A stretch of 58,126 bases of DNA, filler included, from a bacterium (lineage in GTDB: Bacteria > UBA9089 > CG2-30-40-21 > SBAY01): NCBI GenBank assembly GCA_040757115.1. It is 3 parts of 3 records of this genome, joined end to end, with 100 filler letters (N's around TTAATTAATTAA, not from the genome) between each part and the next. Parts side by side here need not be neighbours in the genome. Positions count along the whole stretch, not along the records: positions 1 to 19,449 come from JBFLYA010000057.1; positions 19,550 to 38,867 come from JBFLYA010000058.1; positions 38,968 to 58,126 come from JBFLYA010000059.1. One strand, 5' to 3'. The position numbers and the translations under genes are program-made. The notes beneath the pieces were generated by a model that worked only from the letters and a program-made list of their open reading frames with translations, was not told the origin of the DNA and did not search any database. This document shows, piece by piece, positions 1,344 to 51,553 of this stretch. Numbering within the stretch: position 1 is the first letter of the stretch; each line of letters starts with the position of its first letter.

Positions 1344-1483
1344 GACAGCGAAGAGTGATAATTCACAATTCACAATTGACAATTCACCATTCACCATTTT
1401 AAGGAGAGTTAAGGAAGAAATTGTGAATAGTGAATTGTGAATGAAAGTTAAGGATGCGAATTGTGAATGAATGTAACATTGTC
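1344..1483. repeat. Inverted heptamer-array element B in the dnaG 5' leader
   Basis: (AATTCAC)n followed by (GTGAATT)n; near-identical segment at 29934-30025; boundaries approximate. Confidence 0.7.
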
Positions 1484-1531
1484 CAGTAAAACTTATGGGT
1501 AAAGATAAGGATATAACTGGGGGGATGTAGC

Positions 1532-3265
1532 TTGGCTGGATTTATTCCAGATGAAATAATTGAAGAAGTTAGAAATCGAACTGATTTGGTTGATGTCATT
1601 TCTGATTATGTACTTTTGAAGAAAAGTGGCGAAAATTATAAGGGATTGTGCCCTTTTCATAGTGAAAAGACGCCATCTTTTACCGTCAATCCTCGTAAAG
1701 GAATATTCCATTGCTTTGGCTGTGGTGTAGGAGGAAATATTTATTCCTTTCTAATGAAGATGGAGAAGATGGAATTTGTCGATGCCGTTAAACATTTAGC
1801 CGCTCGATGTGGTGTGGCAATACCACAATTTCAACCTTCTAAACAAATTCAAGAAATAGATACCCTGTATAAAATTAATGAGTTAGCCTCTAAATTCTAT
1901 GAACAACTTTTATGGTTACCAGAAGGGCAAAGGGCTTTAGATTATTTAAAAAAAAGGAAACTGACTCCACAGACAATAAAGAAATTTAAGTTAGGATATG
2001 CACCTGATTCCTGGGATAGACTATTGAATACCTTAAAAGGTTATCCACAAGACAAGATTTGTCAGGTAGGGTTAATATTACCCCGCGAAGGAGGAGGATA
2101 TTACGATAGATTTAGAAATAGAATTACATTTCCCATTATAAATTCCTTTAATAAAATAGTTGGTTTTGGGGCACGGGTTTTAGATGATTCCTTACCTAAA
2201 TATGTCAATTCGCCAGAATCACCTATTTATTATAAAAGTAAGATATTATATGGGTTAAATTTTGCAAAAGAACCTATTCGCAAAGCGAATGCGGCAATTA
2301 TTGTTGAAGGATATATGGATGCCATTTTGTTATCCCAGGCAGGATTTGAGAATGTAGTGGCAGTGGCAGGAACAGCTTTTACTCAAGACCAGGTTGGATT
2401 ATTAAAAAAATTTGGTGAGAAAGCATTTGTGTTATTTGACCCGGATATCGCTGGCATTCAAGCAACATTACGCGGGTTAGATTTATTAATCGAACAGGAA
2501 ATAGAGGTAAAGGTAATTTCTTTACCGCCAAAATTAGACCCCGCAGATTTTATCAGCCAGTTTAGCACACAAGAATTCTCAAAATGCCTCCAAAACGCTG
2601 AGAATTTGTTAGATTATCAATTTAAACAACATATTGCCACTGCGGATATTAATATTGCGGCATCTAAAATAAAGGCTTTAGAAAATATTCTACCAACTAT
2701 TTCAAAAATAACTAATCTCATTCAAAAACGAGATTTTATCAAAAAAGTTGCTGAAGGACTTAGAATAGATGAAGAAATAATCTTATCTGAACTTAAAAAA
2801 GGACAGAAAAAAGCACCTGTCTCAACTTCAGAATATATTACCAAACAAGAAGAAGGAGTGGTATTAGCCGAAAAAGGGTTAATTAAATCTATGTTAGAAA
2901 ATGAGGTATGGGCTAAACAAATATCCATCGAACTTAATCCTGATGATTTCTCAAATACTCAATGTCAACAGATAATTAAGATAATCGTTGAACTCCTTAA
3001 TCAAAAAAAGGCAATTAGTCCACCGCAAATAATTGATTTAGTAAATGAAAAAGCAAAAGATTTAATTACTTACCTTTTACTTCAAAAAGACTTTGGCGTA
3101 GAAAAAGAAAAACTAATTAATGAATATATTAAAAAGATAAAAGAAAATAATCTAAGAAAAAAGAAACTTGAAATCCAAAAAGCAATTGCCCAATTAAAAG
3201 AAGATAACGAGGAATTGTTACGGCAGTATCAGGAGTTAGATTCTCAGATTAGAAGTTTAAAATAA
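1532..3265 (+). CDS. dnaG: DNA primase
   Basis: CHC2 Zn finger (CPFH..EKTPSF..CFGC), YDRFRNRI, KYVNSPES, Toprim EGYMD / DPDIAG; TTG start. Confidence 0.97.
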   Translation: MAGFIPDEIIEEVRNRTDLVDVISDYVLLKKSGENYKGLCPFHSEKTPSFTVNPRKGIFHCFGCGVGGNIYSFLMKMEKMEFVDAVKHLAARCGVAIPQFQPSKQIQEIDTLYKINELASKFYEQLLWLPEGQRALDYLKKRKLTPQTIKKFKLGYAPDSWDRLLNTLKGYPQDKICQVGLILPREGGGYYDRFRNRITFPIINSFNKIVGFGARVLDDSLPKYVNSPESPIYYKSKILYGLNFAKEPIRKANAAIIVEGYMDAILLSQAGFENVVAVAGTAFTQDQVGLLKKFGEKAFVLFDPDIAGIQATLRGLDLLIEQEIEVKVISLPPKLDPADFISQFSTQEFSKCLQNAENLLDYQFKQHIATADINIAASKIKALENILPTISKITNLIQKRDFIKKVAEGLRIDEEIILSELKKGQKKAPVSTSEYITKQEEGVVLAEKGLIKSMLENEVWAKQISIELNPDDFSNTQCQQIIKIIVELLNQKKAISPPQIIDLVNEKAKDLITYLLLQKDFGVEKEKLINEYIKKIKENNLRKKKLEIQKAIAQLKEDNEELLRQYQELDSQIRSLK

Positions 3266-3298
3266 GGGAAGAAGGGAAGAAGGGGTAAGTTAACAAGT

Positions 3299-3440
3299 TA
3301 TAGCGGTTATTAACTGGAAGTTTACATAGGATAATACCCATAAATAAGGCATGAGAATAATCGTTCCGTTAGGAACATAATATCGGTAGGAATAGATAGA
3401 CAAATCAATCAGTTCCGTAGGAACGATATATTGGTAGAAA
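3299..3440. repeat. Solitary TATAG-type MITE end followed by two REP-like palindromes
   Basis: TATAGCGGTTATTAA at 3299; GTTCCG(T)TAGGAAC at 3363-3376 and 3412-3424, each followed by a similar ..ATAT.GGTAG tail. Confidence 0.55.
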
Positions 3441-3519
3441 TTTGTTAGGCATTTATGATTTTGGAGGAGATAACATTATGTCCATCCGTTGCTTGTTCGC
3501 CAGTGGGGTGAACAGATAA

Positions 3520-3605
3520 TAGGGCTTCACGAAATTATAAAGTAAGTAATCGGTTAAATGGTAACTGGTAACTAATTACCATTCACCAGTTACCAATTAC
3601 CAAAA
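3520..3605. repeat. TAGGGCTTCACGAAATT plus inverted (GGTAACT)n/(TTACCAA)n array
   Basis: Related copy at 21306-21390; both lie directly upstream of a ribosome-binding site. Confidence 0.65.
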
Positions 3606-3620
3606 ATAAGGAGTCTGCTT

Positions 3621-3836: not shown

Positions 3837-4057
3837 ATTATTATTTCGATACCTCAGCATTAGTAAAGATTTACCATCGTGAAGACGGAACAGACAGAGT
3901 ACTTGTTATCTATAAAGGTGATGAGCCAATTGCAATTTCTGAGTTAAGCCGTATCGAATTCATAGCCACCGTAATGCGAAAATATCGTGAGCAGGCAATT
4001 ACGCTCGACACACTTCAGTCGCTCCTAACAAAATTTGTAAGCGTTCAGGTGGTGTAA
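3833..4057 (+). pseudogene. VapC/PIN-domain toxin, truncated by MITE A
   Basis: YFDTSALVK..E PIN start; last residues (VSVQVV) come from MITE A, which begins at 4037. Confidence 0.8.
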
Positions 4058-4273
4058 CAAAAGGAGATGTGGAGATTAAGGAGATAGGGAGATATTATTA
4101 AAAAAATTGAAATTAATAGAAACTAATAGAAATTTATGGAAATTTGTTGTTTTCCACAATCAATTTCTACCTATTTCTATAAATTTCAATCTATTTCTAT
4201 TATCTTATCTCCATATCACTCTTATCTCCTTATCCCCTTTCTTACACTTTTGATATATAGCCTGAACGGTTAC
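4037..4273 (+). mobile_element. MITE A, full 237-bp copy, IS66-like ends
   Basis: Ends GTAAGCGTTCAGG / CCTGAACGGTTAC (12/13 inverted match); purine-rich left half mirrors pyrimidine-rich right half; five copies in window. Confidence 0.9.
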
Positions 4274-4389: not shown

Positions 4390-5958
4390 TTGAAAAAAAA
4401 TCAGTTTGTAGATGAAATTGAGCAGATTATTGAATCAGGTAGGGTAAAAGGAGAATTAACTTATGATGAGATAAATGAGATGCTTCCGGATGATATTAGT
4501 CCAGAACAAATGGAGAATCTTTTTTTTCAATTAGCCGAGCAAGGAATATCTATCGTAGATGAATTTTTGCCTGAAAAGGATGAAGAAGGCAAAAAACTAT
4601 CATTTGAACTTCCAGAAACAGAAGGATTTGTTGAAGACCCGGTGAAGGCTTATTTGCGAGATATAGGGAAAGTAAATTTACTTTCATCAGAAGAAGAAAT
4701 TAAAATGGCGATGAAAATGGAATTAGGATGGGAAAAACTAATAGCGGCGGTTTTAGATAGTAGTATAATTATACAGGAATTACGAAAAATTGCCATTCGA
4801 TTAGATAGGGGAGAAAGAAGAATTAGTGAGAATATTGAAGGTGGAGAGCAAGATGAATTATCTCCAGCAAAAAGAGCCCGTCTGGCAACACAAATTAAAA
4901 ATTTATTGAATAAGATAGATAAAGAAACTGATTTAAAAAGAAAAGAAAGAATTAAAAGTATTTTACAAAAGGCGAATCTTCATCGAAATTTAATTCAAGG
5001 AATTGCAAATAAGATAAAGAAGATAATACAAAATATTTCTGAGATTAAAGGGAAAATAGATGAATATGAAAATAGATTAAAGGATATATCTGATGAGAAA
5101 AAAATTGATGAAATAAAAACCCAGATTAAGAAGTACCATAGAAAACTGAAACAAATTGAAACTGAGATTATGGATGATTCCATTGAAAAATTAGTTGAGA
5201 TTGGTGAAAAGATTAAGGAAGGCGAAAAATTAATAGAAGAGGCTAAAGAAGAAATGGTAAGTGCAAATTTAAGATTAGTCGTGAGTATTGCTAAAAGATA
5301 TATTAATTGGGGATTATCTTTCCTTGATTTAATTCAAGAAGGGAATATGGGATTAATTAAGGCTGTGGAAAAATTTGAATATAAGAAAGGATATAGATTT
5401 TCTACTTATGCTACCTGGTGGATTAGGCAGGCAATTACACGAGCTATTGCCGACCAATCAAGAACTATTCGCATCCCGGTGCATATGGTTGAGCAGATAA
5501 ATAAGGTGGTTAAGGAATCAAGACGATTGATACAGAAATTAGGTCGCGAACCTCTACCAGAAGAAATATCAGAGGGATTAGATTGGCCAGCAAATAAAGT
5601 GCGGGGTATTTTACGAATTGCTCAAGACCCAATTTCTTTAGAAACACCAATTGGAGAGGAATCAGATAGTCATTTAGGTGATTTTATAGAAGATAAATCA
5701 GTTGAATCTCCTGTAATTGCAACTACTTTTGCCTTACTACAAGACCAATTAAGAAAGGTGTTAAAAACACTTTCTCTTCAGGAAGAAAGGGTTCTACGAT
5801 TACGATTTGGGTTAGAAGATGGTTCCCCGCGAACATTAGAAGAAGTCGGAGAAAGGTTTAATGTTACCCGGGAGAGAATTCGGCAGATAGAGGCAAAGGC
5901 ATTACGAAAACTCCGCCACCCAACTCGAAGTAGAAAATTAAAAGATTATTTAGAGTAA
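4390..5958 (+). CDS. rpoD: RNA polymerase primary sigma factor
   Basis: Regions 1.1, 1.2 ([11 protein letters not shown]), 2 ([33 protein letters not shown]) and 4 ([16 protein letters not shown]); follows dnaG. Confidence 0.97.
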
Positions 5959-5960: not shown

Positions 5961-6130
5961 GTAACTATTCAGCCACTGATTAACACGGATTAGCACGGAT
6001 AAATAGCAGAGGGCAGAAGGCAGAGGACAACAGGAGAAAAACCCTTCAGCCTAATTACGGACATGGAAAACGGACACGATTCACGAATTTTCAGTGTTTC
6101 ATCCGTGTCTATCTGTGGCTGAATAATTAC
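5961..6130. mobile_element. IS66-like MITE, 170 bp
   Basis: TIR GTAACTATTCAGCCAC / GTGGCTGAATAATTAC (15/16); first 39 nt identical to the reverse complement of 51515-51553. Confidence 0.8.
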
Positions 6131-6131: not shown

Positions 6132-6268
6132 CAGCAATTCTCGGTGAATTTTTAGAGACTGAATTCATCTATGTTGAGGAGAGATAGAGAAAAAAATTTT
6201 TCGTAAAGATTTTGAGAGGAAAATAAGGAATAATGAGTCTCTATCTAATTTTTCACCGAGAATTTCTG
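6132..6268. mobile_element. MITE with CAG ends (IS4-like by inference), inserted at the end of the previous element
   Basis: TIR CAGCAATTCTCGGTGAA / TTCACCGAGAATTTCTG (16/17); flanks AATAATTACA / GATAATTACA. Confidence 0.7.
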
Positions 6269-6317: not shown

Positions 6318-6462
6318 TATAGTAACTATTAACCAAAAGTTCACATTAGTATTGTTGATAGTTGATGGTTGATAGTCTATGAAACTATAAACTATAAACT
6401 ATCAACCATCAACCCTGTTGCTATATCTGTTCTATGAGAAATTTTCGTTAATAACTACTATA
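6318..6462 (+). mobile_element. MITE D, 145 bp, TATAG ends (IS630/Correia-like)
   Basis: TATAGTAACTATTAAC ... GTTAATAACTACTATA; near-identical inverted copy at 8664-8808. Confidence 0.85.
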
Positions 6463-6563: not shown

Positions 6564-6639
6564 GGGCGGTTAGCTCAATTGGGAGAGCGCATGCGTCACA
6601 TGCATGAGGTCACAGGTTCAACCCCTGTACCGCCCACCA
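6564..6639 (+). tRNA. tRNA-Val(CAC)
   Basis: CATGC-GTCACAT-GCATG anticodon arm, GGTTCAA T-loop, CCA end. Confidence 0.9.
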
Positions 6640-6664
6640 GTTACCAATATTTAGGAGATAGAGA

Positions 6665-7369
6665 ATGAATGAGCAGATACAACTTTTAGTCAGCCTCCAA
6701 AATAAAGATACCGCTATTTTTGAATTAAATCAAATAATTAAAAATTTACCCACGAAGGTAGAACAATGGAAACAATCCTACCATGCCAGACAAAATGAAT
6801 TGAATCAAAAAAGAAAAGATAAAGAAAATGTAGAAAAAGAACTAAGAACCAAAGAAAGAAGATTACAAACCATAGAAGATGAATTGAAAAAATTTAGAGC
6901 AAGAATATACGAGGTAAAAACACAAAAAGAAATGGTTTCTTTAGATAGTGAGATAGAAAAAGCAGAGGAAGAAAAAGGTATAGTGGAGGAAGATATTCTC
7001 AAACTGTTTGATGCAAATGATAATTTAGCTAATAAAATTAGTTCTTTAACCATTGAATTAGAAAAGGAATTAGTTGAACTTAAAAAGGAAGAGCAAGAAA
7101 CTAATCGACAAATTGAATTAAATACCAATAAATTAAACTCTGTGACTAAAGATAGAGATGAGATATCTGAAAAGATAGCAAAAGAGACATTAGCACTTTA
7201 TGAAAAAATTCGGGCACATAAAAATAATTTAGCTGTAGTTCAGGTTAAAGATAATGCCTGCCAGGGATGTTTTATAAAACTGCCTCCACAGGTAATCAAT
7301 GAAGTAAAATCTGGTTCACATCTTGTTAGATGTGAAGGTTGTGTGAGAATCCTTTATTGGAAAGAATAA
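6665..7369 (+). CDS. Coiled-coil protein with C-terminal C4 zinc ribbon (DUF164-like)
   Basis: Long coiled coil, then CQGC..LPPQ..CEGC.RILY. Confidence 0.85.
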   Translation: MNEQIQLLVSLQNKDTAIFELNQIIKNLPTKVEQWKQSYHARQNELNQKRKDKENVEKELRTKERRLQTIEDELKKFRARIYEVKTQKEMVSLDSEIEKAEEEKGIVEEDILKLFDANDNLANKISSLTIELEKELVELKKEEQETNRQIELNTNKLNSVTKDRDEISEKIAKETLALYEKIRAHKNNLAVVQVKDNACQGCFIKLPPQVINEVKSGSHLVRCEGCVRILYWKE

Positions 7370-8220: not shown

Positions 8221-8412
8221 GTAACTGTTCACCGCACAGACGCAGAGAAAAAAATTAAAATCTATGGACGCTGGCTTGCCTGCTGAACATTCAGCAAGCA
8301 GGTCATAAGTATTTCTATGTCTGCATCAATAATCTTTTATGTTATCTGATTTATTTCCATATCTTCTCTGTTCCTCTGCGTCTCTGCGGTAAAGGACTAC
8401 CTGAACGGTTAC
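8221..8412. mobile_element. IS66-like MITE, 192 bp
   Basis: Ends GTAACTGTTCA / TGAACGGTTAC; internal CGCACAGACGCAGAG mirrored by CTCTGCGTCTCTGCG. Confidence 0.75.
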
Positions 8413-8663: not shown

Positions 8664-8808
8664 TATAGTAGTTATTAACGAAAATTTCTCATAGAACAGA
8701 TATAGCAACAGGGTTGATGGTTGATAGTTTATAGTTGATAGTTTCATAGACTATCAACCATCAACTATCAACAATACTAATGTGAACTTTTGGTTAATAC
8801 TTACTATA
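8664..8808 (-). mobile_element. MITE D, second copy (inverted)
   Basis: Reverse complement of 6318-6462 with few substitutions. Confidence 0.85.
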
Positions 8809-11497: not shown

Positions 11498-11515
11498 GGG
11501 AACAAGTTAATAAGT

Positions 11516-11747
11516 TATAGCACTTATTAATCGAAATTTGACATAGATATAGCTATGAAATTCCAAATCACAAATTCCAAATTCCATTTAGTGAATTAGT
11601 GAATTAAGCGAATTAGCGAATTAGTAAAATCTAATCTCTAATTCACTAATCTCTAATTCGCTTTTTGGTATGTGGAATTTGGTGCTTGGGATTTGGGATT
11701 TTTTTACTTATCCACTCTGAGTAAAGTTTTGACTAATAACTGCTATA
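11516..11747 (+). mobile_element. MITE C, 232 bp, TATAG ends
   Basis: TATAGCACTTATTA ... TAATAACTGCTATA; nested inverted arrays (AAATTCC)n and (GAATTAGC)n; near-identical copy at 24452-24683. Confidence 0.88.
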
Positions 11748-12166: not shown

Positions 12167-12326
12167 GATACCTGCTCTTTCCAGTAAAGAACTTGTCAGA
12201 TTATTGGAAAAAGGGGGAGTAGTATTTGTCAGACAGGGACCAACAGACCATGCTATATATTCAAGGATAGTTGAAGGAAGAAGATATTCTACTCCTGTCA
12301 GGCTCATTTTAAATCACGGGGCGTAG
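12159..12326 (+). pseudogene. HicA-family toxin, C-terminally truncated
   Basis: PALSSKELVRLLEK.G..FVRQG..H; only 55 aa and the stop lies inside tRNA-Pro. Confidence 0.7.
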
Positions 12327-12395
12327 CGCAGCTTGGTTTAGCGCACCAGCATGGGGGGCTGGGGGTCAGCGGTTCGAATCCGCTCGCCCCGACCA
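12317..12395 (+). tRNA. tRNA-Pro(GGG)
   Basis: CGGGGCG stem, CCAGC-ATGGGGG-GCTGG arm, GGTTCGAATC, CCA end. Confidence 0.92.
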
Positions 12396-12424
12396 GGTAA
12401 TTTATCAACTTATCCGGGCTGTAA

Positions 12425-13411
12425 CTATAGTTTGTTTAAAGTTTGAATAAAGGGTTGATAGGCAATACCTTTTTCCGTAATAATTGCTTTAATAAATTTA
12501 TTCGGGGTAACATCAAACGCGGGTGAATAAACATTTATTCCCTCAGGTGCAGTTCTTTTACCAAATCCATAAGTAATTTCGTCTGCTTCTCTTTCTTCTA
12601 TGGGAATTTGTGAGCCATCTTCTAATGACAAGTCAATTGTAGATGTAGGCGCAACAACATAAAAAGGAATATTATGTTCTTTGGCTAATACTGCCACGCC
12701 ATAGGTACCAATTTTATTAGCTGTATCGCCATTTTGGACGATTCTATCCGCACCAACGATAACGAGATTGATTTTCCCTTGTTTCATTACCATTGCGGCC
12801 ATATTATCACAGATTAATGTTACATCAATTCCTGCTTGCATTAATTCCCAGGTAGTTAATCTTGCACCTTGTAATAAAGGTCTTGTTTCATCTGCAAACA
12901 CCTTAATTTTCTTACCTTGTTTTTGGGCCGTGTATATAGCCGCAAGTGCCGTTCCTATGCCACCGGTGGCTAATGCCCCAGCATTACAATGAGTAAGAAT
13001 CGTATCACCATTTTTTATTAATGAGGCACCATATTCACCCATCTGGCGGCATTTTTCTCTATCATCCTCATGAATTGATTTAGCCTCTTTTAATAACGCC
13101 TCTTTTAATTCTGAGCCTTTATGATTTTTCGCACATTTCGCCATCCTTTGTAATGCCCAAAATAGATTAACTGCCGTTGGTCGAGTGCTCTCCAGAAGTT
13201 TAATACTCTGTTCTATTCTATTTACACCCAGGACAACGCCATAAGCCGCGGCAACACCAATAGCTGGTGCCCCTCGGACCCGTAATTTTTTTATTGCCTC
13301 GGCGACTTCATCCACAGTGCTACATTCTAAATAAACCAGTTCCTCTGGCAATTTCGTCTGGTCTATAATCTTTAATTTATCATCTTCCCATTTAATCGTT
13401 TCAACTATCAT
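12425..13411 (-). CDS. mtnA: Methylthioribose-1-phosphate isomerase
   Basis: VRGAPAIG, RPTAVNL, LTHCNAGALAT, DETRPLLQGARLT, ANKIGTY; likely start MIVETIKW. Confidence 0.95.
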   Translation of the reverse strand: MIVETIKWEDDKLKIIDQTKLPEELVYLECSTVDEVAEAIKKLRVRGAPAIGVAAAYGVVLGVNRIEQSIKLLESTRPTAVNLFWALQRMAKCAKNHKGSELKEALLKEAKSIHEDDREKCRQMGEYGASLIKNGDTILTHCNAGALATGGIGTALAAIYTAQKQGKKIKVFADETRPLLQGARLTTWELMQAGIDVTLICDNMAAMVMKQGKINLVIVGADRIVQNGDTANKIGTYGVAVLAKEHNIPFYVVAPTSTIDLSLEDGSQIPIEEREADEITYGFGKRTAPEGINVYSPAFDVTPNKFIKAIITEKGIAYQPFIQTLNKL

Positions 13412-13560
13412 AACCACGAATATTAACATAAAAATTGGGATTTGTCAATTTTTTTATTCTGACCGAAAAATAGACATAGGATAGAAAAAAACGATAAAAC
13501 CCCTTGTATTTTGATGAGTTTTGTGATATAATTATTATAACCACAATGGTTAAAAAAACT

Positions 13561-13777
13561 GTAACCGTTCAGGTTCCTCCAAATATCAAAATGCAAAAAG
13601 CAAATATAAAAATTACATATCAAAATGTAAAATTATCTCTTTCAGCGTTAAAATACTTGAAGTCCTTTTTGAAATTTGATTTGTAATTTTGCATTTTGAT
13701 ATTTGATTTTTGATATTTATTTGTTGTTTCCCCCAAATCCTATTTTGCAGAATCCTATACACCAACTGAACAGTTAC
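13561..13777. mobile_element. IS66-like MITE, 217 bp, with 8-bp TSD
   Basis: GTAACCGTTCAG / CTGAACAGTTAC; flanked on both sides by AAAAAACT (13553-13560, 13778-13785). Confidence 0.88.
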
Positions 13778-14547: not shown

Positions 14548-14614
14548 TGGATAGTGTGTAGTTTTCCCTCCCAGTCAGTCAGAAAGGATGAAGGAATACT
14601 TATGCCCTAAACAT
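14503..14614 (+). repeat. 39-bp direct repeat enclosing a 34-bp unique insert inside cas10
   Basis: CAGTCAGAAAGGATGAAGGAATACTTATGCCCTAAACAT at 14503-14541 and 14576-14614. Confidence 0.95.
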
Positions 14615-17026
14615 CCACCAAAACATCCCAATGATGATGGTTATTCCCACAAACATACCCTCTGGACAAATGAATTCTTTGAACCTATAGTTTCAAACCT
14701 ACCTCCTGAAATCAATAAAACCGATGTAGTTAACCTATCAAGCTATCACCATAAGCCAGCCACAGATCTACAGACAATAATTCAAGAGGCTGATTGTTTA
14801 TCTGCTGGTGTAGATAGAACAACCAACGATGAAGAAGATGAGCAGTTTGGAAAAGATGCTTACAAAAAGAGAAGGTTACGAGCGATATTTGAACAGATTG
14901 AATTAAATTATCCTCTGAAACGAGACGAGAAAGGTAATCTAAAAAATATTTATCGTTACGAACTATTACCATTAAACTTACAAAAGCAAACTATCTTTCC
15001 TAAAAAACAGAGTAAACTTAGTCCACCTGAAGGTGAACTTTTAATAAATGAATATAATAACCTCTGGAAAGGGTTTATTAAAGAATTTAACCAGCTACCT
15101 GTTGACAACTTTGACCTCTTCTTTAACTCCCTTTATTATCTTCTACAAAAGTACACCTGGTGTATCCCTGCTTCAACTATTGACTTCCCAGATGTATCCT
15201 TATTTGACCACCTAAAGACTACTGCGGCTATCTCCGGATGTCTTTATAAATACCATTTACAAAATGAATCTTTTAATGAACAATCTATTAAAAATAGAGA
15301 TGTAGATAAGTACCTTTTGGTTTGTGGGGATATAAGCGGAATCCAGCAATTTATTTACAAGATTTCCTCCAAAGGAGCGGCAAAGGGATTAAAGGGAAGG
15401 TCATTCTACCTACAGATACTCCCAGATGCTATTGCTCACCATATCCTGCATAACACAGGGTATCATATAGTAAATCTGCTATATTCTGGTGGTGGTAAAT
15501 TCTATCTCTTGTTAGACCCCAACTCTGAAAACACCTTAAAGGATATTGGTAAAGAAGTTAACACCTATTTGTTGGAGCAATTTCAGGGAGGCGTATATCT
15601 TGCGTTAGGATGGTGTCATCTTAAAGGGAGTGATTTTGCTAAAAGGGAGAAGGTGGAAAGTGAATTTTATCTAAAATGGCAGGAATCTACCCGGGAGGCA
15701 AATAAGAAAAAAAGGCAGAAGTTCTCAGAATTTCTATATAATGAGGTTTTTGGTATTTTTGGTGAAGGAGCTGAAACGAAAACCTGCGAGATATGTAAAA
15801 ACGAAATAGTTGAGAATGAAACAAAATGTCCTGCTTGTGTCCTAAACGAAAAGATTGGGACAAGATTGGCAAAAGTAGGTAGAGGATTTATGTTAGAAAC
15901 CTATAACCAGGAAAAGGAAATTGATGAAGAGGGCTTTATTTTTGAACTATTAGGAATAAAATACTATCTTATCTCCAAAGATGAGATAAATAATATCAGA
16001 TCTGAACATGCAATGCTTTATACCATAAATACTACTGATATGTCCTTTATAAGGAAAGATATTACCTCTGGCTTCAAATTTATTGCTGGGAATTTCGCTC
16101 CTTCAGATAAAGAGGGAAATATTTTAACCTTTGGTGAATTAGCACAAAATTCCTCTGGTGGCTTAAAGAGATTAGGAATATTAAGAATGGATGTAGATAA
16201 TCTTGGTCAGATATTTATCAAAGGCTTGGGCAAGAAGGCTTCTATATCACGGGTAACTGAACTTAGTAGAAAATTGGAACTTTTCTTTGGGGGGTATCTG
16301 AATGAAATTGTCCAACAACAAAGTTATGACAATAAGGTTTATATCGTATATTCAGGTGGAGATGATCTCTTTATAGTAGGGGCATGGGATGTAATGCCTG
16401 AATTGGCAAGAGAGATACAGCAAGAATTTAAAACATTTACTTGCTCAAACCCTAATATTAGCTTATCTGGAGGTATTACCTTAATCCCTGGGAAATATCC
16501 CATCTATAAAGGTGCTGAATTAGCAGGGGAATCTGAAGAAGATGCAAAGAATTACAAAAGAAACGGAAAAGAAAAAGATGCGTTATCTTTCTTAAATACA
16601 GTAGTAAGCTGGAATGAATTTGAGGTAGCTTATGCAATTAAAGATATGCTGGTAAAATCTATAAAAGAAGGGAAAATAGATAATCTTTCCGGAGAAAATG
16701 TGTATCTAAAAAAGGGAATACTTGAACGATTGAGGCAAATTTATTTACTCTATCAGAAGAATAAAAATTTCTGGGAAACCAGGCAAACACAGATTAGTCA
16801 ACAAGAAATGCAAGAAAGAATTTACTACAACCAATGGTTATGGATGATGGTCTATTCCTTAGAAAGATATAGAGAACAGAATAAATTGTTTCAAGAGGAG
16901 GTGAGTCAGCTTATCCATGCTATCCTCGGTAAAGAATTTAACGGAATAAAGTCTGACCGCGAGGTCATTGATTTTATCAACTTACCTGCCCAGTGGGCAG
17001 AATTTTTAGTTAGAGAGGAGGGATAA
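14588..17026 (+). CDS. cas10: Cas10/Csm1 main body, lacking the HD motif
   Basis: DVSLFDHLKTTAAI, GDISGIQQFIY, LKGRSFY, MDVDNLG, YSGGDDLF. Confidence 0.93.
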   Translation: MKEYLCPKHPPKHPNDDGYSHKHTLWTNEFFEPIVSNLPPEINKTDVVNLSSYHHKPATDLQTIIQEADCLSAGVDRTTNDEEDEQFGKDAYKKRRLRAIFEQIELNYPLKRDEKGNLKNIYRYELLPLNLQKQTIFPKKQSKLSPPEGELLINEYNNLWKGFIKEFNQLPVDNFDLFFNSLYYLLQKYTWCIPASTIDFPDVSLFDHLKTTAAISGCLYKYHLQNESFNEQSIKNRDVDKYLLVCGDISGIQQFIYKISSKGAAKGLKGRSFYLQILPDAIAHHILHNTGYHIVNLLYSGGGKFYLLLDPNSENTLKDIGKEVNTYLLEQFQGGVYLALGWCHLKGSDFAKREKVESEFYLKWQESTREANKKKRQKFSEFLYNEVFGIFGEGAETKTCEICKNEIVENETKCPACVLNEKIGTRLAKVGRGFMLETYNQEKEIDEEGFIFELLGIKYYLISKDEINNIRSEHAMLYTINTTDMSFIRKDITSGFKFIAGNFAPSDKEGNILTFGELAQNSSGGLKRLGILRMDVDNLGQIFIKGLGKKASISRVTELSRKLELFFGGYLNEIVQQQSYDNKVYIVYSGGDDLFIVGAWDVMPELAREIQQEFKTFTCSNPNISLSGGITLIPGKYPIYKGAELAGESEEDAKNYKRNGKEKDALSFLNTVVSWNEFEVAYAIKDMLVKSIKEGKIDNLSGENVYLKKGILERLRQIYLLYQKNKNFWETRQTQISQQEMQERIYYNQWLWMMVYSLERYREQNKLFQEEVSQLIHAILGKEFNGIKSDREVIDFINLPAQWAEFLVREEG

Positions 17027-17028
17027 CC

Positions 17029-17439
17029 GTGCAAAATCAGGAAAGAATCTGGACAGAGCAACAGATTGAACAAATTATTAATGGTGACACAAAACAATTG
17101 GTGGCTACTGCAGAGAAGTTGGGTAAAGATTTGTGTGATAAGAAGGATGAGAGGGGTAATATTTTGTCTAAGGGAATGACCAAATCACAGATTAGGAATA
17201 TCTTTAATTCTGTTAAGCAGATGGAGATGAAAGGCTTCAATCCAAAAGATCTGTTATTGCTAAAGCCTAAACTGGCTTATGCTGCAGTTCGACCAGGAGC
17301 GACAAACGGAACCAGAGTGATTAAAGATATTCTTACTAAAGCAATTGATAAGGTAGGTGATGACGCTAAAAAATTTGATAATTTCTGCAACTTCTTTGAG
17401 GCTATCCTGGCTTATCACAGAGCCGCAGGCGGAAAATAA
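17029..17439 (+). CDS. csm2: Type III-A small subunit Csm2
   Basis: TKSQIRNIF, LKPKLAYAA.R, FFEAILAYHR. Confidence 0.93.
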   Translation: MQNQERIWTEQQIEQIINGDTKQLVATAEKLGKDLCDKKDERGNILSKGMTKSQIRNIFNSVKQMEMKGFNPKDLLLLKPKLAYAAVRPGATNGTRVIKDILTKAIDKVGDDAKKFDNFCNFFEAILAYHRAAGGK

Positions 17440-17450
17440 AAGGAGGTGTT

Positions 17451-18209
17451 TTGAAGATGGATAACGATTTTAAATTACTCAAGAAGATATTTATAACTGG
17501 CACAATAGAGGTAAAAACAGGGCTTTGTATCGGTGGAAGTAGTGTAGGATTAGAGATTGGAGGCGCAGATAAGGTTGTGGTAAGAAACCCCATCAATAAT
17601 CAACCCTATATCCCAGGCTCATCACTTAAAGGAAAGATGAGAAGTTTATTAGAAAGATTTGAGGGGAAAATGAGTATTAAAGAGAAAAAGGATGAAAAAG
17701 GCAACATCATTGGCGTGAGTGCTGAGCCTTGTGAATGTGGAACCTGTTTAATCTGCCAGATTTTTGGTCTTCCTGCAGAAAAAAAGGGAATGCCAGCCAG
17801 ACTGATTGTTCGAGATGGAATGTTACAAAATCCCGAATTGCTTGAAAAGAGTAAATTTACTGATATGCCCTATGCTGAGATTAAAGCAGAGGTGGTAATA
17901 GATAGGATTACTTCTGTCGCTACACCAAGAACCTTTGAACGGGTGCCAGCTGGTGCAAAGTTTAATCTTAACCTTGTATGTAATATCTATAACGGTGATA
18001 CAGAGTCAGATATCTTAAAGAAGATATTTGAATCACTTATCAAGGTTCAGGAGGATTATTTGGGAGGAAGTGGCACAAGGGGATATGGAGAGATAAAGAT
18101 TACAATCAATACGCCACTAAAATATAAAGACCAAACTGTCTATGAAGGGGATAATAATCCAAAAAGTATACAAAATAATAGCCTTATCCCTTCTCAGCTT
18201 CTTTCGTGA
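17451..18209 (+). CDS. csm3: Type III-A RAMP Csm3
   Basis: TGLCIGG..IGGADKVVVR, PYIPGSSLKGKMRSLLE, YLGGSGTRGYG. Confidence 0.95.
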   Translation: MKMDNDFKLLKKIFITGTIEVKTGLCIGGSSVGLEIGGADKVVVRNPINNQPYIPGSSLKGKMRSLLERFEGKMSIKEKKDEKGNIIGVSAEPCECGTCLICQIFGLPAEKKGMPARLIVRDGMLQNPELLEKSKFTDMPYAEIKAEVVIDRITSVATPRTFERVPAGAKFNLNLVCNIYNGDTESDILKKIFESLIKVQEDYLGGSGTRGYGEIKITINTPLKYKDQTVYEGDNNPKSIQNNSLIPSQLLS

Positions 18210-34803: not shown

Positions 34804-34848
34804 GCTCAATATCTATATTAATTAGTATATCGTTCAAAAAAAATGATA

Positions 34849-34919: not shown

Positions 34920-35888
<969 letters not shown>

Positions 35889-35909
35889 TTACAAAAGGAG
35901 GAATAAAAG

Positions 35910-37973
35910 ATGAATTGTCCAAATTGTTCAATCCAACTAACCCCAACTATGACTACTCAAGGTGTAGAAGTTGATGCGTGCAGTAAATGTAATGGTGTCT
36001 GGCTGGATAAAGGTGAGGTATTTTTCTTTACTAAAAAAGTAAATGCCGTTGCCAGGGCACTTGAGCAAGCAATTAAAGAAGGAAAACCTACGACAAAACT
36101 TAGTCCTAAAACCCAAAAACCAATGCAAGAAATATCTCTCTCAGAGGGAAAAATTCAAATTGACTATTGTCCCCAGAGCAATGGACTCTGGTTTGATGCC
36201 GGAGAATTAGAGCAATTACAAAAGACTGATATTAAAATAACCCTTGATAAAGAGGCAAAAATATCCACTAAACCCAAAATTTACGAGATAAAGGAAAAAG
36301 TACCTCCGTTAATTAAAAACCTGACTCCACTTCCAAATCTCTTCATTCGGTCATGTAGTGTCCTTTTTGGGCTATATGCACTTTTGACACTTGTTTTAAT
36401 TACGGTGGTAAATTTTGGTCTTATCACGCCAGATTTTGCCATATTAATCGCTCTGGGAATTATTTCTTTACAATTTATCCTGGGTCCCTGGCTGATGGAT
36501 ATATCACTGCGATTCTTTTATAAGATTTCCTGGAATGCCTATTTACCAGAGCCTCTAAATAATTTTATTAAAGATACCTGTCGAAAACAAGGAATGAAAT
36601 TTCCTCGATTTGGTATTTTACAAGATGGTGCACCGCAAGCATTTACTTATGGACATCATCCCAATAACGCCAGAATCGTTATTTCGCAAGGATTAATTGA
36701 CCTTTTAGAACCAGAGGAAGTTTGCGGTGTTGTTGCCCATGAAATTGGACATGCCAAACACTGGGATATGTTAGTTATGACGATTGCGTATCTTGTTCCA
36801 CTTATTTTATACTATGTATATCGGACACTTATACAAATGCGAACAAAGGGCAGAGAGGACAAATCTGCACACATACGCTATGCCATTGCTATTGGTTCAT
36901 ATATTCTTTACATTATCAGTCAATATCTGGTTTTATGGCTATCTCGGACCAGGGAATATTATGCCGATAGATTCGCAGGTGAAGTAACTAAAAATCCTAA
37001 CGCCCTGGCATCGGCATTAGTCAAAATTGCTTATGGATTGGCTGGACAACAGAAAAAAGAAGAAAAAGAAACTCGAAGAGCCCCAACTTTAGATGCAATT
37101 GGTGCCTTAGGAATATTCGATGCTAAAGTCGCCCGTTCGTTGGCTATGGTCAGTTATTCATCCCCTGCGGCTAAAATGGGTGGTGAGATAAATAAAGAAA
37201 ATCTACAAGAAGCAATGAAATGGGATTTGTGGAATCCCTGGGCAAAATATTATGAATTGCATTCTACTCACCCATTAGTCGCAAATCGACTAAATTATCT
37301 CTCTGAACAAAGTATTTCCCTGGGACTTGAACCTTTTGTGTCCTTTAATCAAAAGAAACCTGAATCATACTGGGATGAATTTTTTGTGGATTTATTGATA
37401 CTCTACTTGCCTACAATGGTGATACTCTTTAGTTTGGGAGGTATCATTGCACCACCCTTGTTGCTACAAAGTTCTCCTGATATGACGCTATTGGGTCTGG
37501 TTTTTTGTTTATTTGGAATTGCACAATTAATTCAGATAGTATTTTCTTATAAAAATCCGGGTTATTTCCCGCAAATGGATATTGTCAGCTTACTAAAAAA
37601 TGTAAAAGTCTCGGCAATAAGACCTGTTCCTTGTAGACTTAAAGGTAAAATAATAGGTCGGGGAGTGCCAGGTCTTATCTGGTCAGAAGATTTTGTCATG
37701 CAGGATTCAACCGGGATAATATTCCTTGATTATCGTCAGCCATTAGGTATCTGGGAATTTCTATTTGGATTACTTCGTTCTTCACAACTTCAAGACCAGG
37801 AAGTAACTCTTACTGGCTGGTATCGTCGAAGCCCTGTGCCGTATGTTGAATTGAAAAATTTTACTATCGGCTCAACTACTCGTAATTGCTATGTTTATCA
37901 GATGAAACTTATTTCATCAGGATTTATAATATTATTGGGAATAGGTATGTTACTTATGTCAATAGTAAAGTAG
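35910..37973 (+). CDS. M48 (HtpX-like) zinc metalloprotease with N-terminal TFIIB-type Zn-ribbon repeats
   Basis: CPNC..C.KC.GVWLDKGE and a second GLWFDAGEL repeat; AHEIGH, SRTREYYAD, STHP. Confidence 0.88.
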   Translation: MNCPNCSIQLTPTMTTQGVEVDACSKCNGVWLDKGEVFFFTKKVNAVARALEQAIKEGKPTTKLSPKTQKPMQEISLSEGKIQIDYCPQSNGLWFDAGELEQLQKTDIKITLDKEAKISTKPKIYEIKEKVPPLIKNLTPLPNLFIRSCSVLFGLYALLTLVLITVVNFGLITPDFAILIALGIISLQFILGPWLMDISLRFFYKISWNAYLPEPLNNFIKDTCRKQGMKFPRFGILQDGAPQAFTYGHHPNNARIVISQGLIDLLEPEEVCGVVAHEIGHAKHWDMLVMTIAYLVPLILYYVYRTLIQMRTKGREDKSAHIRYAIAIGSYILYIISQYLVLWLSRTREYYADRFAGEVTKNPNALASALVKIAYGLAGQQKKEEKETRRAPTLDAIGALGIFDAKVARSLAMVSYSSPAAKMGGEINKENLQEAMKWDLWNPWAKYYELHSTHPLVANRLNYLSEQSISLGLEPFVSFNQKKPESYWDEFFVDLLILYLPTMVILFSLGGIIAPPLLLQSSPDMTLLGLVFCLFGIAQLIQIVFSYKNPGYFPQMDIVSLLKNVKVSAIRPVPCRLKGKIIGRGVPGLIWSEDFVMQDSTGIIFLDYRQPLGIWEFLFGLLRSSQLQDQEVTLTGWYRRSPVPYVELKNFTIGSTTRNCYVYQMKLISSGFIILLGIGMLLMSIVK

Positions 37974-38028
37974 CCAGTAGTCAGTGAACAGTGGTCAGTA
38001 ATTAGAAACCAATTTAAGAGGTAATGAA

Positions 38029-38721
38029 ATGACTAAAAGTCAGTTTTTAGGTAAAATATCTATTTTTAGTTCCTTAGAAAAAGAAGATTTGGAACTATTA
38101 GCAACCGCTACTCAAGAAGTAACTTACAAAAAAGGACAAACAATTATCAGCAGTGAAGAGATAGGGACGACATTTTTCGTTGTTAAATCAGGTAAAGTCA
38201 AGGTAACTGCAGAGGCGTTAGATAGTCGAGAGATTGTGCTGAGCACCCTTGCCCCTTTATCTTTCTTTGGGGAGATGTCTATTCTTGATGGTGAACCGAG
38301 GTCTGCGACTATCACTGCCTTAGAGGAGACAGAATTGATTACTATGGATAAGGATGTTTTTCTCAGAATACTACACCGTTATCCCCAAATTGCAATTAAT
38401 ATACTAACTATTTTATCTCAAAGGTTACGAAGAGCAGATGAATTAATTCAAAATTTAAGATTTTTAAGTGCCTCAGGAAGGACAATCCAAACATTATTTA
38501 AGCTCTTAGATGAGCATGGTGTGAAGGTAAAAGAAGGAATGCTAATTGATATGCGATTGACTCATCAAGAGCTGGCAAGTTTAGCCGGGACATCAAGAGA
38601 ATCAATGCGTAAGGTTATCCACGATTTTCAAGAAAAAGGTTATCTAAAATTCTACCGTGGCAAAATCACTGTTTTAAATGAAGATATACTCTTAAGAACA
38701 TTAGCGAGATCTATTGTTTAA
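38029..38721 (+). CDS. Crp/Fnr-family regulator
   Basis: FFGEMS.LDG.PRSAT cNMP pocket; LTHQELASLAGTSRE HTH. Confidence 0.93.
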   Translation: MTKSQFLGKISIFSSLEKEDLELLATATQEVTYKKGQTIISSEEIGTTFFVVKSGKVKVTAEALDSREIVLSTLAPLSFFGEMSILDGEPRSATITALEETELITMDKDVFLRILHRYPQIAINILTILSQRLRRADELIQNLRFLSASGRTIQTLFKLLDEHGVKVKEGMLIDMRLTHQELASLAGTSRESMRKVIHDFQEKGYLKFYRGKITVLNEDILLRTLARSIV

Positions 38722-38746
38722 TTATTCTCCTATCTTCATATATTTC

Positions 38747-38867
38747 GTAACCGTTCAGGCTATATATCAAAAGTGTAAGAAAGGGGATAAGGAGATAAGA
38801 GTGATATGGAGATAAGATAATAGAAATAGATTGAAATTTATAGAAATAGGTAGAAATTGATTGTGGA
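38747..38867 (-). mobile_element. MITE A, partial copy at contig edge (other half)
   Basis: Reverse complement of the last 121 nt of 4037-4273. Confidence 0.9.
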
Positions 38868-38967
38868 NNNNNNNNNNNNNNNNNNNNNNNNNNNNNNNNN
38901 NNNNNNNNNNNTTAATTAATTAANNNNNNNNNNNNNNNNNNNNNNNNNNNNNNNNNNNNNNNNNNNN
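38868..38967. other. Artificial contig linker
   Basis: 44 N + TTAATTAATTAA + 44 N. Confidence 0.97.
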
Positions 38968-41405: not shown

Positions 41406-41505
41406 NNNNNNNNNNNNNNNNNNNNNNNNNNNNNNNNNNNNNNNNNNNNNNNNNNNNNNNNNNNNNNNNNNNNNNNNNNNNNNNNNNNNNNNNNNNNNNN
41501 NNNNN
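41406..41505. other. Scaffold gap
   Basis: 100 N. Confidence 0.97.
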
Positions 41506-49878: not shown

Positions 49879-50075
49879 TGAAAAATCCTTTGTGCCTATT
49901 TCCCATCTTATTCTGTAACTGCTCACCGCAGAGATGATATGATAAAGTGTCAAGTTTGACCTGCGAAAGATTTTGTGGTATACTATACAAAAAGTATTAA
50001 CTAACTAAAATAAGGAGGACAAACTTATGACACAAACAACATATTTACCAAAAGATTATGAACTATTCATTGGGC

Positions 50076-51003
50076 TAGTACCCTGTCTCTATTCAATTGA
50101 TGGATAAAGTCGCTTCAACTTAATCCGGGCATCTGGGGTTGTAAATTGCCACTTCACTTTAGCCTCTACCTTGTTCCTATCTGATTTCCAAGATGCCACC
50201 TCCCTTTTCATCTCAGAAATGTTTTCGATTCTTCGTGACAAACACTGTTCGCTCAGAACACTTAATTCTATCTCTGCCATATTCAGCCAACTGCCATGCT
50301 TTGGCGTGTGGTGAATCTCCAGGCGATCCGCAATACGCTTTGCTTCGCCAGGTTCAAACAGTTCGTACAAAGACGCTGGTGTATGCGTATTAAGGTTGTC
50401 TATTACCAAAACAATCTTTTGGCTTTCTGGATATTTCTCTTCAACCAGATTGCGGATGAACTTAGCAAAATCGACTTTTGTGCGGTGTTCGGTCACTTCC
50501 ACATGTCTTTTGCCAGCCAACGGTTCAAACGCCATAAACAGATTAGCAACGCCATTGCGTCTATACTCGTGGTCATACCTGAGCGGCTGTCCAGGTTCTG
50601 CTGGGATTGGCTTGCGTATCTCGCCAATCAATTGTCTGCACAACTCGTCTAAACATACCATTGGACGCAGCGGATCATAAGGCCGTTTGTACACATCTAA
50701 AACATCTTCCATTCGCCAAACAAATTCTGCATTAGCTTGAGGCGGAATACACCATTGTTTGCTTAACCAAGGTTTAATTTCGTTTTTTTAAAGTGCGATG
50801 CACGGTGTCCTTAGATACCGAATCGATATACTCTAATGTAACCATCCTCTCTGCAAGCAATCTCAGTGTCCATCGACTGCGACCTTCTGGTGGCTCGTTG
50901 CAGGCCAGAGCAACCAGATGAACTTCAGCGTCGCCATCAATCTTTCGCCGATATTCACGCCGTGGCATCCTGCGTCCCAGGGCTGCTTCCAAACCTTCTT
51001 CTA
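50076..51003 (-). mobile_element. IS630-family element, split ORFs, 5'-truncated
   Basis: HTH part PPEGRSRWTLRLL (50774-50992) and DDE part CLDE, DNLNTH, TPKHGSWLNMAEIE (50089-50712); frame change at an A7 run (50783-50789). Confidence 0.92.
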
Positions 51004-51143
51004 GAGGGTCGGACCTATTCTAACCCCGCATCAGAAGTAGGATTAGAGAGATTATGTAATAATTACACCTCCCATCCTTAAATCCTACCCATATCTCTTT
51101 GCCCTCCCCTTTAATCTTTCCTTAAAATCAATATTTTTGTTTA

Positions 51144-51411
51144 GTAACTATTCACCACGAAGAGCACGAAGGGCAGGGAGATGTTACAGAACAAATCTCT
51201 TTATGCTTTCTTTCTATCTTTCCACATTGAAATTTATCAATAGACCAACCTTAAATAGTAGTCAGTAGTTAGTAGTCAGTAATTACTGTTCACTCTTCAC
51301 CTCTTCCCTACTGACTACTCTCTACTCTCTACTATTTTAGGTAATGACTCTATTCGATAATTCATCAAATTTCACTTCGTGCTCTCCGTGCCCTTCGTGG
51401 TGAATAGTTAC
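51144..51411 (-). mobile_element. IS66-like MITE with GxxExxY start and a nested element (51248-51342)
   Basis: TIR GTAACTATTCACCACGAAG; 51343-51411 matches the reverse complement of 29818-29886 at 68/69. Confidence 0.85.
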
Positions 51412-51413
51412 GT

Positions 51414-51553
51414 TGGACGCAGATAAACGCAGATTTTCAAGATTTTAAACTACAGAATTTTTTATTATCCTGATAATCTGTGCAAATCTGCGTCCCATTA
51501 ACTTGAAAACCAATTCCGTGCTAATCCGTGTTAATCAGTGGCTGAATAGTTAC
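51414..51553. repeat. GGACGCAGAT..ATCTGCGTCC hairpin plus IS66-like end
   Basis: Inverted repeat at about 51415-51495 (half copy at about 212-232); 51515-51553 is the reverse complement of 5961-5999. Confidence 0.7.

Follow-up and report, generated by a model that had tools for sequence, protein, structure and literature searches.

The DNA analysed here, hereafter the window, is a stretch of 58,126 nucleotides from an uncultured groundwater bacterium of the GTDB lineage UBA9089; CG2-30-40-21 (assembly GCA_040757115.1). It is ordinary chromosome of about 35% G+C, encoding dnaG, rpoD, four tRNAs, a 2-oxoacid:ferredoxin oxidoreductase, a type III Cas10/Csm locus, two YfhO genes, an ATP synthase gamma gene and B12-radical SAM genes, and mobile elements make up about 7% of its length. 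[quoted passage not shown] An earlier note on this DNA had counted at least five types of ends and had proposed that the arrays are a separate genetic entity, repeatedly captured and spread by unrelated transposases. We find more than five end types and more GTAA-ended copies than were then listed, and we describe a TA-type MITE that became, with its arrays, the cargo of an IS66-type shell by nesting and was then amplified.

The window consists of several contigs joined end to end, and a six-frame stop spacer (TTAATTAATTAA) is present in two of the three N linkers between them. Copies of a 237-bp GTAA-ended MITE are the stopping points of the contigs, every contig end in the window being broken there, so that adjacency across the linkers is not real. 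The public runs that match the window sequence are groundwater metagenomes, all of DNA; unitigs from three of these runs over positions 19550-38867 end at repeats, and none bridges an element. Our main comparison genome is that of a sister strain (G001; 4.7 Mb in 770 contigs) with a gene identity of 89-99%, mostly 94-99%; eight syntenic contigs of this strain cover the window genes at mostly 94-99% identity. Repeats were counted in a 547-kb set, the window together with 489 kb sampled from the sister genome.

Ends of the elements and the IS66 link

The elements bounded by GTAA..TTAC are non-autonomous members of the IS66 family. They carry terminal inverted repeats (TIRs) at both ends (GTAAGCGTTCAGG, GTAACCGTTCAGG, GTAACTATTCACC) with the GTAA(GCG) beginning of IS66 ends and, with a strict end pattern, 42 of them (159-400 bp) were found in the 547-kb set with an 8-bp target-site duplication (TSD), exact in 36 and with one mismatch in 6. 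A recount restricted to element ends 40 nt or more away from the ends of a sequence gave an exact 8-bp TSD in 34 of 228 end pairs versus none of 684 offset comparisons. A relaxed GTAA pattern is uninformative alone (35 matches in the window versus about 20 in shuffled sequences), and TSD-confirmed or strict-motif counts are used here. The motif GTAASCGTTCAGS occurs 721 times in the sister genome versus 0 for the reversed control and is present in 22 of the 24 available genomes of this phylum. The sister strain has three GTAA copies, with the 8-bp duplications CCTTTTGC, CACCGCTC and GAATTTCC, for which the window offers precise empty sites.

The IS66 family is marked by 'GTAAGCG' ends and 8-bp repeats (PMC11946415), and the assignment to it, made earlier from the GTAA ends and the TSD length, is now supported by transposase-bearing elements of relatives. 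In two genomes of the same order (G007 and G008), all three IS66 transposase elements with both flanks available have GTAA TIRs (GTAACCGTTCACA, GTAATAGTTCAGCC and GTAACTACTCAGG; DDE_Tnp_IS66, E ~1e-39). For instance, the element L070 (1033-2537) has GTAACCGTTCACA at both ends and a 468-aa DDE_Tnp_IS66 open reading frame (ORF) inside, and L073 and L072 are similar. The first eleven bases of GTAACCGTTCACA are the same as the commonest MITE end, and the GTAACCGTTCA end of one IS66 element is identical to MITE ends. The window has no IS66 transposase, that of the sister strain occurs only as pieces at contig ends, on two contigs, and a contig scan with it gave a single match, to a distant archaeal locus. 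The L073 element (contig C235 of G007; 18-bp GTAA TIRs) also carries a 291-aa ORF of the DruA family (Druantia; 1666-2541, E 5e-31), which may be a defence-gene passenger.

At least seven GTAA subfamilies have the terminal 11-13 bp in common and differ in the tandem units just inside the ends (AAGGAGAT, CGCAGAG, CACAGAG, CACGAAG, GGAAGTA, GGGGAAAT and CACGGAT). The sister strain has dozens of copies of the 237-bp MITE, 94-100% identical and some with exact 8-bp TSDs, and 15 copies of the 215-bp MITE of positions 29818-30032 among the matches listed. Seven copies in the window are complete: the two reported earlier with exact TSDs (13561-13777 and 29818-30032) indeed match at 8/8, one matches at 6/8 and four have no TSD, which fits later rearrangement or neighbouring insertions. 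At the site of one of these four (5961-6130), the sister strain has a different, partial GTAA element. Positions 51343-51412 repeat 29886-29817 at 98.6%. A 223-aa ORF without Pfam match (19757-20428), which may be a passenger gene, lies between two GTAA left ends, a solo one at 19681 and another at 20425.

The other shells are of several kinds. The copies previously described as TATAG-ended form two real pairs (6318/8664 and 11516/24452), and their ends are a TA duplication followed by a TIR starting with TAG. Precise empty sites for one member of each pair demonstrate the TA target duplication that characterizes IS630/Tc1-type MITEs. This part of the former assignment to IS630 stands, whereas no IS630 element with matching TIRs was found in the four genomes searched, at five loci (contigs C696 and C521 of the sister strain and three in G004) or in the window remnant. 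A search with three TA-type TIRs gave none within 6 substitutions, and the best two, with 7 mismatches in 25, are not convincing.

The GGG..CCC element with its 9-bp TSD is present as reported. In the sister strain, this family has 19 ends (control 0). Its complete copies there number four and measure 350-365 bp, the 9-bp TSD being exact in three and having one mismatch in the fourth; these canonical copies have an AAATTCC-type core, quite unlike that of the 225-bp window copy, and no pair among the 19 ends is more than 365 bp apart. The GG ends and the 8-9-bp duplication make IS256 a candidate family for these copies. A PDDEXK_2 (YhgA/Rpn-like) gene was considered as a partner of the GGG family and rejected, 12 of 13 such genes having no GGG end nearby. 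One gene of this kind (L132 561-1598, contig C11 of the sister strain) lies beside a solo GGG end, and its C-terminal part consists of about 20 tandem MEKG/MKKG repeats. The CAG..CTG element at 6132 is also real, with an exact 9-bp TSD in place of the near 10-bp one described before, and a second copy in the sister strain has the 9-bp TSD AAGAACCGA. The TCGACC element was found at 28112 as announced. The sister strain has a further end type upstream of rpoD, a 166-bp hairpin element (L014 ~6632-6800) with GGAAGTA-type units, the TIR CTCTCGGATAAAA and a possible 5-bp duplication, TTCTT; there is none upstream of rpoD in the window (4365). The features of the window are collected in Table 1.

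Table 1. Elements, hairpins and linkers of the window. z, folding stability relative to dinucleotide shuffles; RBS, ribosome-binding site.
Position	Strand	Feature	Remarks
1-122		237-bp GTAA MITE, half copy at contig end	100% to 4158-4034; right end ..CCTGAACGCTTAC at 122
1344-1480		Hairpin upstream of dnaG, "free" AATTCAC/GTGAATT array	z -5.5; 94% to 29940-30026
3516-3613	+	Leader hairpin element before RBS	z -5.4
4037-4273		237-bp GTAA MITE, mirrored arrays AAGGAGAT and AATAGAAATT	Flanks match 6/8
5961-6130		GTAA element, CACGGAT and GCAGAAG arrays	No TSD
6132-6268		CAG..CTG MITE, no tandem arrays	Exact 9-bp TSD ATAATTACA
6318-6462		145-bp TA MITE, TIR TAGTAACTATTAAC, GTTGATA/CTATAAA hairpin	Precise single-TA empty site in sister strain
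8221-8412		GTAA element, CGCAGAG arms	No TSD; ~29 matches in sister-strain sample
8664-8808		145-bp TA MITE, second copy, inverted	98.6% over 145 to 6318-6462; TA on both sides
11515-11747		233-bp TA foldback MITE, nested AAATTCC and TTAGTGAA mirrored arrays	Precise single-TA empty site in sister strain
13561-13777		GTAA shell enclosing a partial 'TAGG' element (TA type) with module M1	Exact 8/8 TSD AAAAAACT
19450-19549, 38868-38967, 41406-41505		N linkers between contigs	
19550-19670		237-bp GTAA MITE, half copy at contig start	
20461-20561		Short GTAA element, CACAGAG arms	Abuts solo GTAA left end at 20425
21301-21396	+	Leader hairpin element upstream of lipoprotein gene (21408)	
24451-24683		233-bp TA MITE, second copy	97.0% over 233 to 11515-11747; absent at syntenic sister-strain site
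26969-27002	-	TTACC-type hairpin just upstream of ATP synthase gamma gene	By eye
27887-28111		GGG..CCC MITE, core of M1 and CTATAAA hairpin	Exact 9-bp TSD TTTTCGACC
~28112-28385		TCGACCTGTGCGGTTAG..-ended (TCGACC) palindromic element	17-bp TIR; five sister-strain copies, 96-98%
29784-30151		Outer CAAGGGAT hairpin element, left arm holding GTAA MITE	Wholly absent from sister strain
29818-30032		215-bp GTAA MITE: CACGAAG units, 5' part of GxxExxY gene, AATTCAC hairpin	Exact 8/8 TSD AAGGGATC
38747-38867		237-bp GTAA MITE, half copy at contig end	
50089-50992	-	Broken IS630-family transposase remnant	DDE_3, E 2.9e-28; ends unlike TA MITEs
51144-51411		268-bp GTAA element: CACGAAG units, inverted GxxExxY 5' fragment, central AGTAGTC hairpin	No TSD; z -7.5
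51412-51553		Solo right end of CACGGAT-type GTAA element	51515-51559 = 5999-5956 at 97.8%
57923-58126		Part of 237-bp GTAA MITE at window end	99% to 4025-4240

Nesting of elements and shared interiors

Interiors are shared between shells with different ends. The most evident case pointed out earlier, a module common to a GTAA shell (13640-13707) and to the GGG shell in inverted orientation (27949-28016), was reproduced at 66 of 68 positions. The non-repetitive core of this module, M1 (searched as 43 nt with up to 4 edits), has 10 copies in the 547-kb set, five with TA-type 'TAGG' ends, two within GGG ends and three without assignment. One of the five TAGG-ended copies is that of 13561, itself inside GTAA ends; its homology to the TAGG copies of the sister strain ends at ..TTTTGCAGAATCCTA, just within the right GTAA TIR. 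Moreover, in a GGG-ended copy of the sister strain, the arms (GTGTAAGAAAAGGAGAT..) are those found in the 237-bp GTAA family (46 bp, 87%, E 3e-11). Shared descent of the core of the 365-bp GGG copies and the 233-bp TA family was considered and rejected, only AAATTCC-type stretches of 25-34 bp being alike.

The passage of an interior from one shell to another could be reconstructed for the 233-bp TA MITE. In 11 of its 18 full-length copies, this element lies at one identical TA within the CACAGAG-type GTAA MITE. These 11 composites occupy different loci, with exact and different 8-bp TSDs in six of them (four detected by script and two by eye), mismatched flanks in three and one degenerate end in two. 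Since the composites share a single TA site at different loci, they go back to a single nesting event followed by amplification by the IS66-type shell: the TA-type MITE with its arrays became cargo of this shell by nesting and was then multiplied with it. The demonstrated route across shells is thus a MITE nested in another MITE and re-mobilised, and not the capture of a free-living hairpin entity.

Other insertions of one element into or beside another are visible. The MITE at 29818 is nested in the left arm of an outer hairpin element, a GTAA element with the TSD AAATACTT is inserted in the loop of M1, and the GGG MITE (27887-28111) sits at the left tip of the TCGACC element. Three cases go beyond nesting: the GGG copy of the window, the difference between the hairpins upstream of dnaG (see below) and the CACGAAG-type GTAA family, in which the ORF part is swapped for an AATTCAC hairpin in one variant and for an AGTAGTC hairpin in another. 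These core swaps may be due to template switching at repeats.

Mirrored arrays, GxxExxY cassettes and leader hairpins

The Tandem Repeats Finder (TRF) program detected 652 arrays with a period of 6-11 in the 547-kb set. Neighbouring arrays of the same unit (within 250 bp, units agreeing within one mismatch) are inverted in 86 cases versus direct in 7, which confirms, beyond chance, the mirror arrangement described in the earlier note. Under this strict rule, a mirrored partner was found for 23 of the 58 window arrays; the rule passes over several obvious ones, whose consensus units are more than one base apart. The predicted hairpins are far more stable than dinucleotide shuffles for all ten window arrays folded (z from -3.7 to -9.1, the latter for the core of 11515-11747), with none of 200 shuffles folding as well for nine hairpins and 2 of 200 for one.

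The two arms do not change together. The sister-strain allele of the hairpin at 21301 is longer by 88 bp, in the right arm only, and copies of the 233-bp TA family have unit-sized indels confined to one arm; the arms therefore lengthen and shorten independently, by slippage. Their mirror symmetry is best ascribed to a palindromic origin of the elements rather than to continual correction. In an alignment of the 18 full-length copies of the 233-bp family, which are very alike (91% column identity), none of the 64 predicted pairs has a compensatory change. Rfam at gathering score gave only the four tRNAs in the window and no match to the arrays. The "free" array upstream of dnaG recurs in a GTAA shell, as had been stated (1350-1435 corresponds to 29940-30026, 94% over 87), and at this site the sister strain has a different, TGGTAAC hairpin between identical flanks. 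Hairpins were also gained or expanded next to tRNAs in the sister strain.

The arms found beside GTAA ends are also those of cassettes encoding GxxExxY nucleases. The sister genome yields 71 matches to PF13366 (GxxExxY), including 17 of full length, and all 17 full-length genes lie between mirrored tandem short units by visual inspection (CACGAAG, CACAGAT, CACAAAG, CGCAAAG and CGCAGAG, among others). GTAA-type ends bound four of them on both sides and a fifth on the left alone; among the four, one of 563 bp has an exact TSD (AAATGGGA) and the other three have none. The remaining twelve are without any GTAA end, so the arms exist independently of any shell. The window contains only fragments of such genes, from their 5' part (the first ~90 bases), at 29840-29930 and 51343-51400. 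Because the arms of gene-bearing copies match those of gene-less GTAA subfamilies, we read the latter as deletion derivatives; the GTAA MITEs would be gene-less or gene-fragment derivatives of GxxExxY cassettes with IS66 ends.

The GGTAACT arrays are part of a separate element of 76-100 bp, composed of TAGGGCTTCACGAAATTA, about 20 nt and a TGGTAAC/TTACCA hairpin, which we call the leader element. In 22 of 25 copies sampled, a ribosome-binding site comes next on the same strand, with a start codon and an ORF of 60 codons or more behind it, and in typical copies the ribosome-binding site lies within a few bases of the last hairpin unit. The leader 18-mer has 93 copies in the sister strain (control 1) and at most 5 in each of the other 23 genomes. 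At the site upstream of the gene for the M48 peptidase, the sister strain has the element and the window precisely lacks it, without duplication. Leader copies of the sister strain include one at L018 ~5492-5569 and, on contig C200, four in tandem at a spacing of about 80 bp.

The window and the sister strain also differ in gene content. The Cas10/Csm block (14588-19210), located between the GTAA MITE at 13561 and a contig end, has no match in the sister strain at E <= 1e-30, and the second of the two tandem YfhO paralogues (32492-34481) has no syntenic counterpart there. The genes for tRNA-Pro and an IF-2B-like protein (12302-12428 and 12427-13462), adjacent in the window, are about 10.6 kb apart on contig C157 of the sister strain, where an island may have integrated beside the tRNA gene.

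Interpretation and comparison with known systems

We interpret these elements as a dense, layered community of non-autonomous elements whose interiors are shared mainly through nesting and carriage by an outer shell, a reading to which we give a probability of about 60%. A first layer would be formed by transposon shells moved by transposases encoded elsewhere: GTAA..TTAC shells by an IS66-family transposase generating 8-bp duplications, TA-duplicating elements of the Tc1/IS630 kind, the GGG..CCC and CAG..CTG families with 9-bp duplications each, and the TCGACC-ended family. The second layer is that of the interiors, foldback arms of short tandem units, those beside GTAA ends being of the same kind as the arms that bracket GxxExxY nuclease genes. 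Array length changes via replication slippage, one arm at a time, and elements insert into one another, after which the outer shell copies the whole composite; cores may also be replaced via template switching at repeats during repair, which is less sure. The arrays themselves probably have no cellular function. This reading accounts for shared interiors in the shells of unrelated transposases, and the TA-in-GTAA composite provides a clear bacterial case of MITE nesting followed by amplification of the composite.

Several observations weigh against it. Simple nesting is insufficient for the GGG copy of the window, which keeps about 35 and 20 bp of its shell and no inner TIRs, and the dnaG upstream site has two different hairpins in two genomes with a gene identity of 97-99%. 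A TSD is lacking in four of the window's seven complete GTAA copies and in three of the four gene-bearing GTAA elements, most GxxExxY cassettes have mirrored arms and no GTAA end (12 of 17, one more having a left end only), and the AT-rich units of the TA and GGG shells (AAATTCC, CTATAAA, TTGATAT) were seen around no GxxExxY gene. The search for an autonomous partner of the TA families gave none in the four genomes covered, and none came to light for the GGG family, although no search aimed at IS256 was made. In addition, the sister-strain sample was picked from contigs already matching the window, which biases the proportions of the families.

The cases beyond nesting leave room for hairpins with a mobility of their own. 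The mirrored hairpins might be a self-standing selfish module, represented by the arms of the widespread GxxExxY cassettes and partnered in this phylum with transposons. IS66-type ends on the arms would allow a DDE transposase to move arms and genes together, the arms would serve as recombination handles swapping cores among shells, and a related hairpin would home, without duplication, 4-6 bases upstream of ribosome-binding sites; we consider this possible, if doubtful. The proposal of the earlier note can also be sharpened: the hairpin would be self-standing, moved by an enzyme of its own (GxxExxY nuclease or Y1/HUH transposase), and would actively enter MITEs of all kinds, whose shells then spread it; this appears unlikely to us. 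The mirrored arms around all 17 GxxExxY genes, 12 of them without any GTAA end, speak for it, as do the orthologous dnaG site with different hairpins, the hairpins gained or expanded beside tRNAs, the insertion of the leader element without TSD, the replacement of the ORF part by either of two hairpins in the CACGAAG family, and nine Y1_Tnp matches in the sister strain, some with mirrored arrays of their own. However, no naked hairpin showed an insertion hallmark or a defined end, the window arrays are built of other units than those beside the Y1 genes (GGGACACATCC, GGTAATCTGGGGACAC), and the sole reconstructed cross-shell event is the nesting of an entire MITE, TIRs and TA duplication included, within another. 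The separate hairpin entity of the earlier note is thus partly supported: it retains the GxxExxY arms without TIRs, the dnaG site and the TSD-less leader, and loses the capture of free hairpins as the demonstrated route. The three outcomes which that note had listed as contrary to its proposal did not occur: modules cross end types (M1 in TAGG, GTAA and GGG shells, the TA MITE in GTAA composites), arrays are mirrored, and empty sites exist for three GTAA and two TA insertions between the window and the sister strain.

The arrays could also be kept for their work in the cell or in the element, for instance by forming stems in RNA (leader structures, or RNase III sites like those of 23S intervening sequences) or by offering proteins several binding sites on DNA. 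The stability of all ten hairpins and the position of the leader element just upstream of translation starts would agree with such a role, as would the RNase III-cut terminal inverted repeats and tandem GACAGAT units of the Coxiella 23S intervening sequence (PMC4990558). Yet the arms change length independently, no predicted pair of the 233-bp family shows compensation (with low variation there), Rfam recognises only tRNAs, and copies come and go between genomes with 97-99% identical genes, all of which makes this improbable. We regard as very improbable that the arrays are shell-specific subterminal repeats bound by the transposase, as in the fly Galileo/Foldback elements. The arrays do abut the GTAA TIR directly and are mirrored at both ends, and Galileo has long, internally repetitive TIRs (PMC3573991) and multiple transposase-binding sites (PMC3688188). 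Against this stand the joining of one GTAA end to at least seven different units and the occurrence of the same module in different shells. Our preferred reading remains that of a layered community whose interiors travel mainly by nesting.

Non-autonomous derivatives of insertion sequences that carry passengers, called mobile insertion cassettes, are known alongside MITEs, and some copies here likewise carry a passenger gene. The ends GTAAGCG or GTAAC and the 8-bp duplication of the IS66 family (PMC11946415) are also found here, down to identical ends on the IS66 elements of relatives. What differs from that family is the interior, a foldback whose short tandem units vary among subfamilies sharing one end, and the passenger, a GxxExxY nuclease gene; no description of this combination was found in the literature searched.

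The BOX elements of Streptococcus pneumoniae are modular, with an internal tandemly repeated module, and form a single family with one repeat type. The minisatellite-bearing MITE of Porphyromonas gingivalis (PMC4596501) is also a small modular element with an internal tandem module, but again a single family with one repeat type. For neither is module exchange among several end types reported. In the mainly open literature that we searched, we found no description of bacterial MITE families exchanging their tandem-repeat cores, or of IS66-ended GxxExxY foldbacks.

The REP/REPIN-RAYT systems resemble the present one in their dispersed intergenic hairpins and in Y1 genes located between inverted copies, as with the Y1_Tnp matches of the sister strain. 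Two Y1 (IS200/RAYT-like) genes of this strain (L148 and L149, contigs C651 and C332) are flanked by the mirrored units GGGACACATCC and GGTAATCTGGGGACAC in a REP/RAYT-like layout. However, the main families of the window have TIRs and TSDs, which REPINs lack, and the Y1-flanking units differ from those of the window. Intergenic tandem heptamers are also found in the short tandemly repeated repetitive (STRR) sequences of cyanobacteria and in the TAACTGA repeats of Beggiatoaceae. A cyanobacterial origin of the window, which its STRR-like heptamers could suggest, was rejected on the genes present (PFOR, B12-radical SAM enzymes) and on relatives with small genomes. Most TAACTGA sets are found immediately upstream of start codons, with a fixed orientation (PMC4679880), comparable to the TAACTGG/TTACCAG leader hairpins, and are the nearest description found for the leader element. 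They are direct repeats, with one inverted among 170 sets (PMC4679880), whereas those described here are mirrored, mostly located in shells and from a different phylum.

In architecture, the nearest elements are Foldback, Galileo and Tetris of Drosophila, whose terminal inverted repeats are long, internally repetitive and variable in length; these are eukaryotic and have a P-superfamily transposase, whereas in the present elements a single short TIR goes with many different repeat units. GxxExxY (PF13366/PDDEXK_3) cassettes and 23S intervening sequences share with our elements a small ORF between inverted tandem heptamer-like arms, and the intervening sequence of Coxiella has RNase III-cut terminal inverted repeats and, before the ORF, a variable number of tandem GACAGAT units (PMC4990558). 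We found almost nothing on the genomic context of GxxExxY proteins, and among the publications listed for GxxExxY, PDDEXK_3 or the 23S intervening-sequence protein, none is about flanking repeats, judging by titles and the openings of abstracts. The arms described here differ in that they often end in IS66-type TIRs with TSDs and empty sites, and the window holds only gene fragments. The presence of IS66 ends on GxxExxY foldback arms is a new link. The GxxExxY family is an orphan one of very large size, and these ends, TSDs and empty sites provide a testable route of movement for their cassettes and also for the far more numerous gene-less copies.

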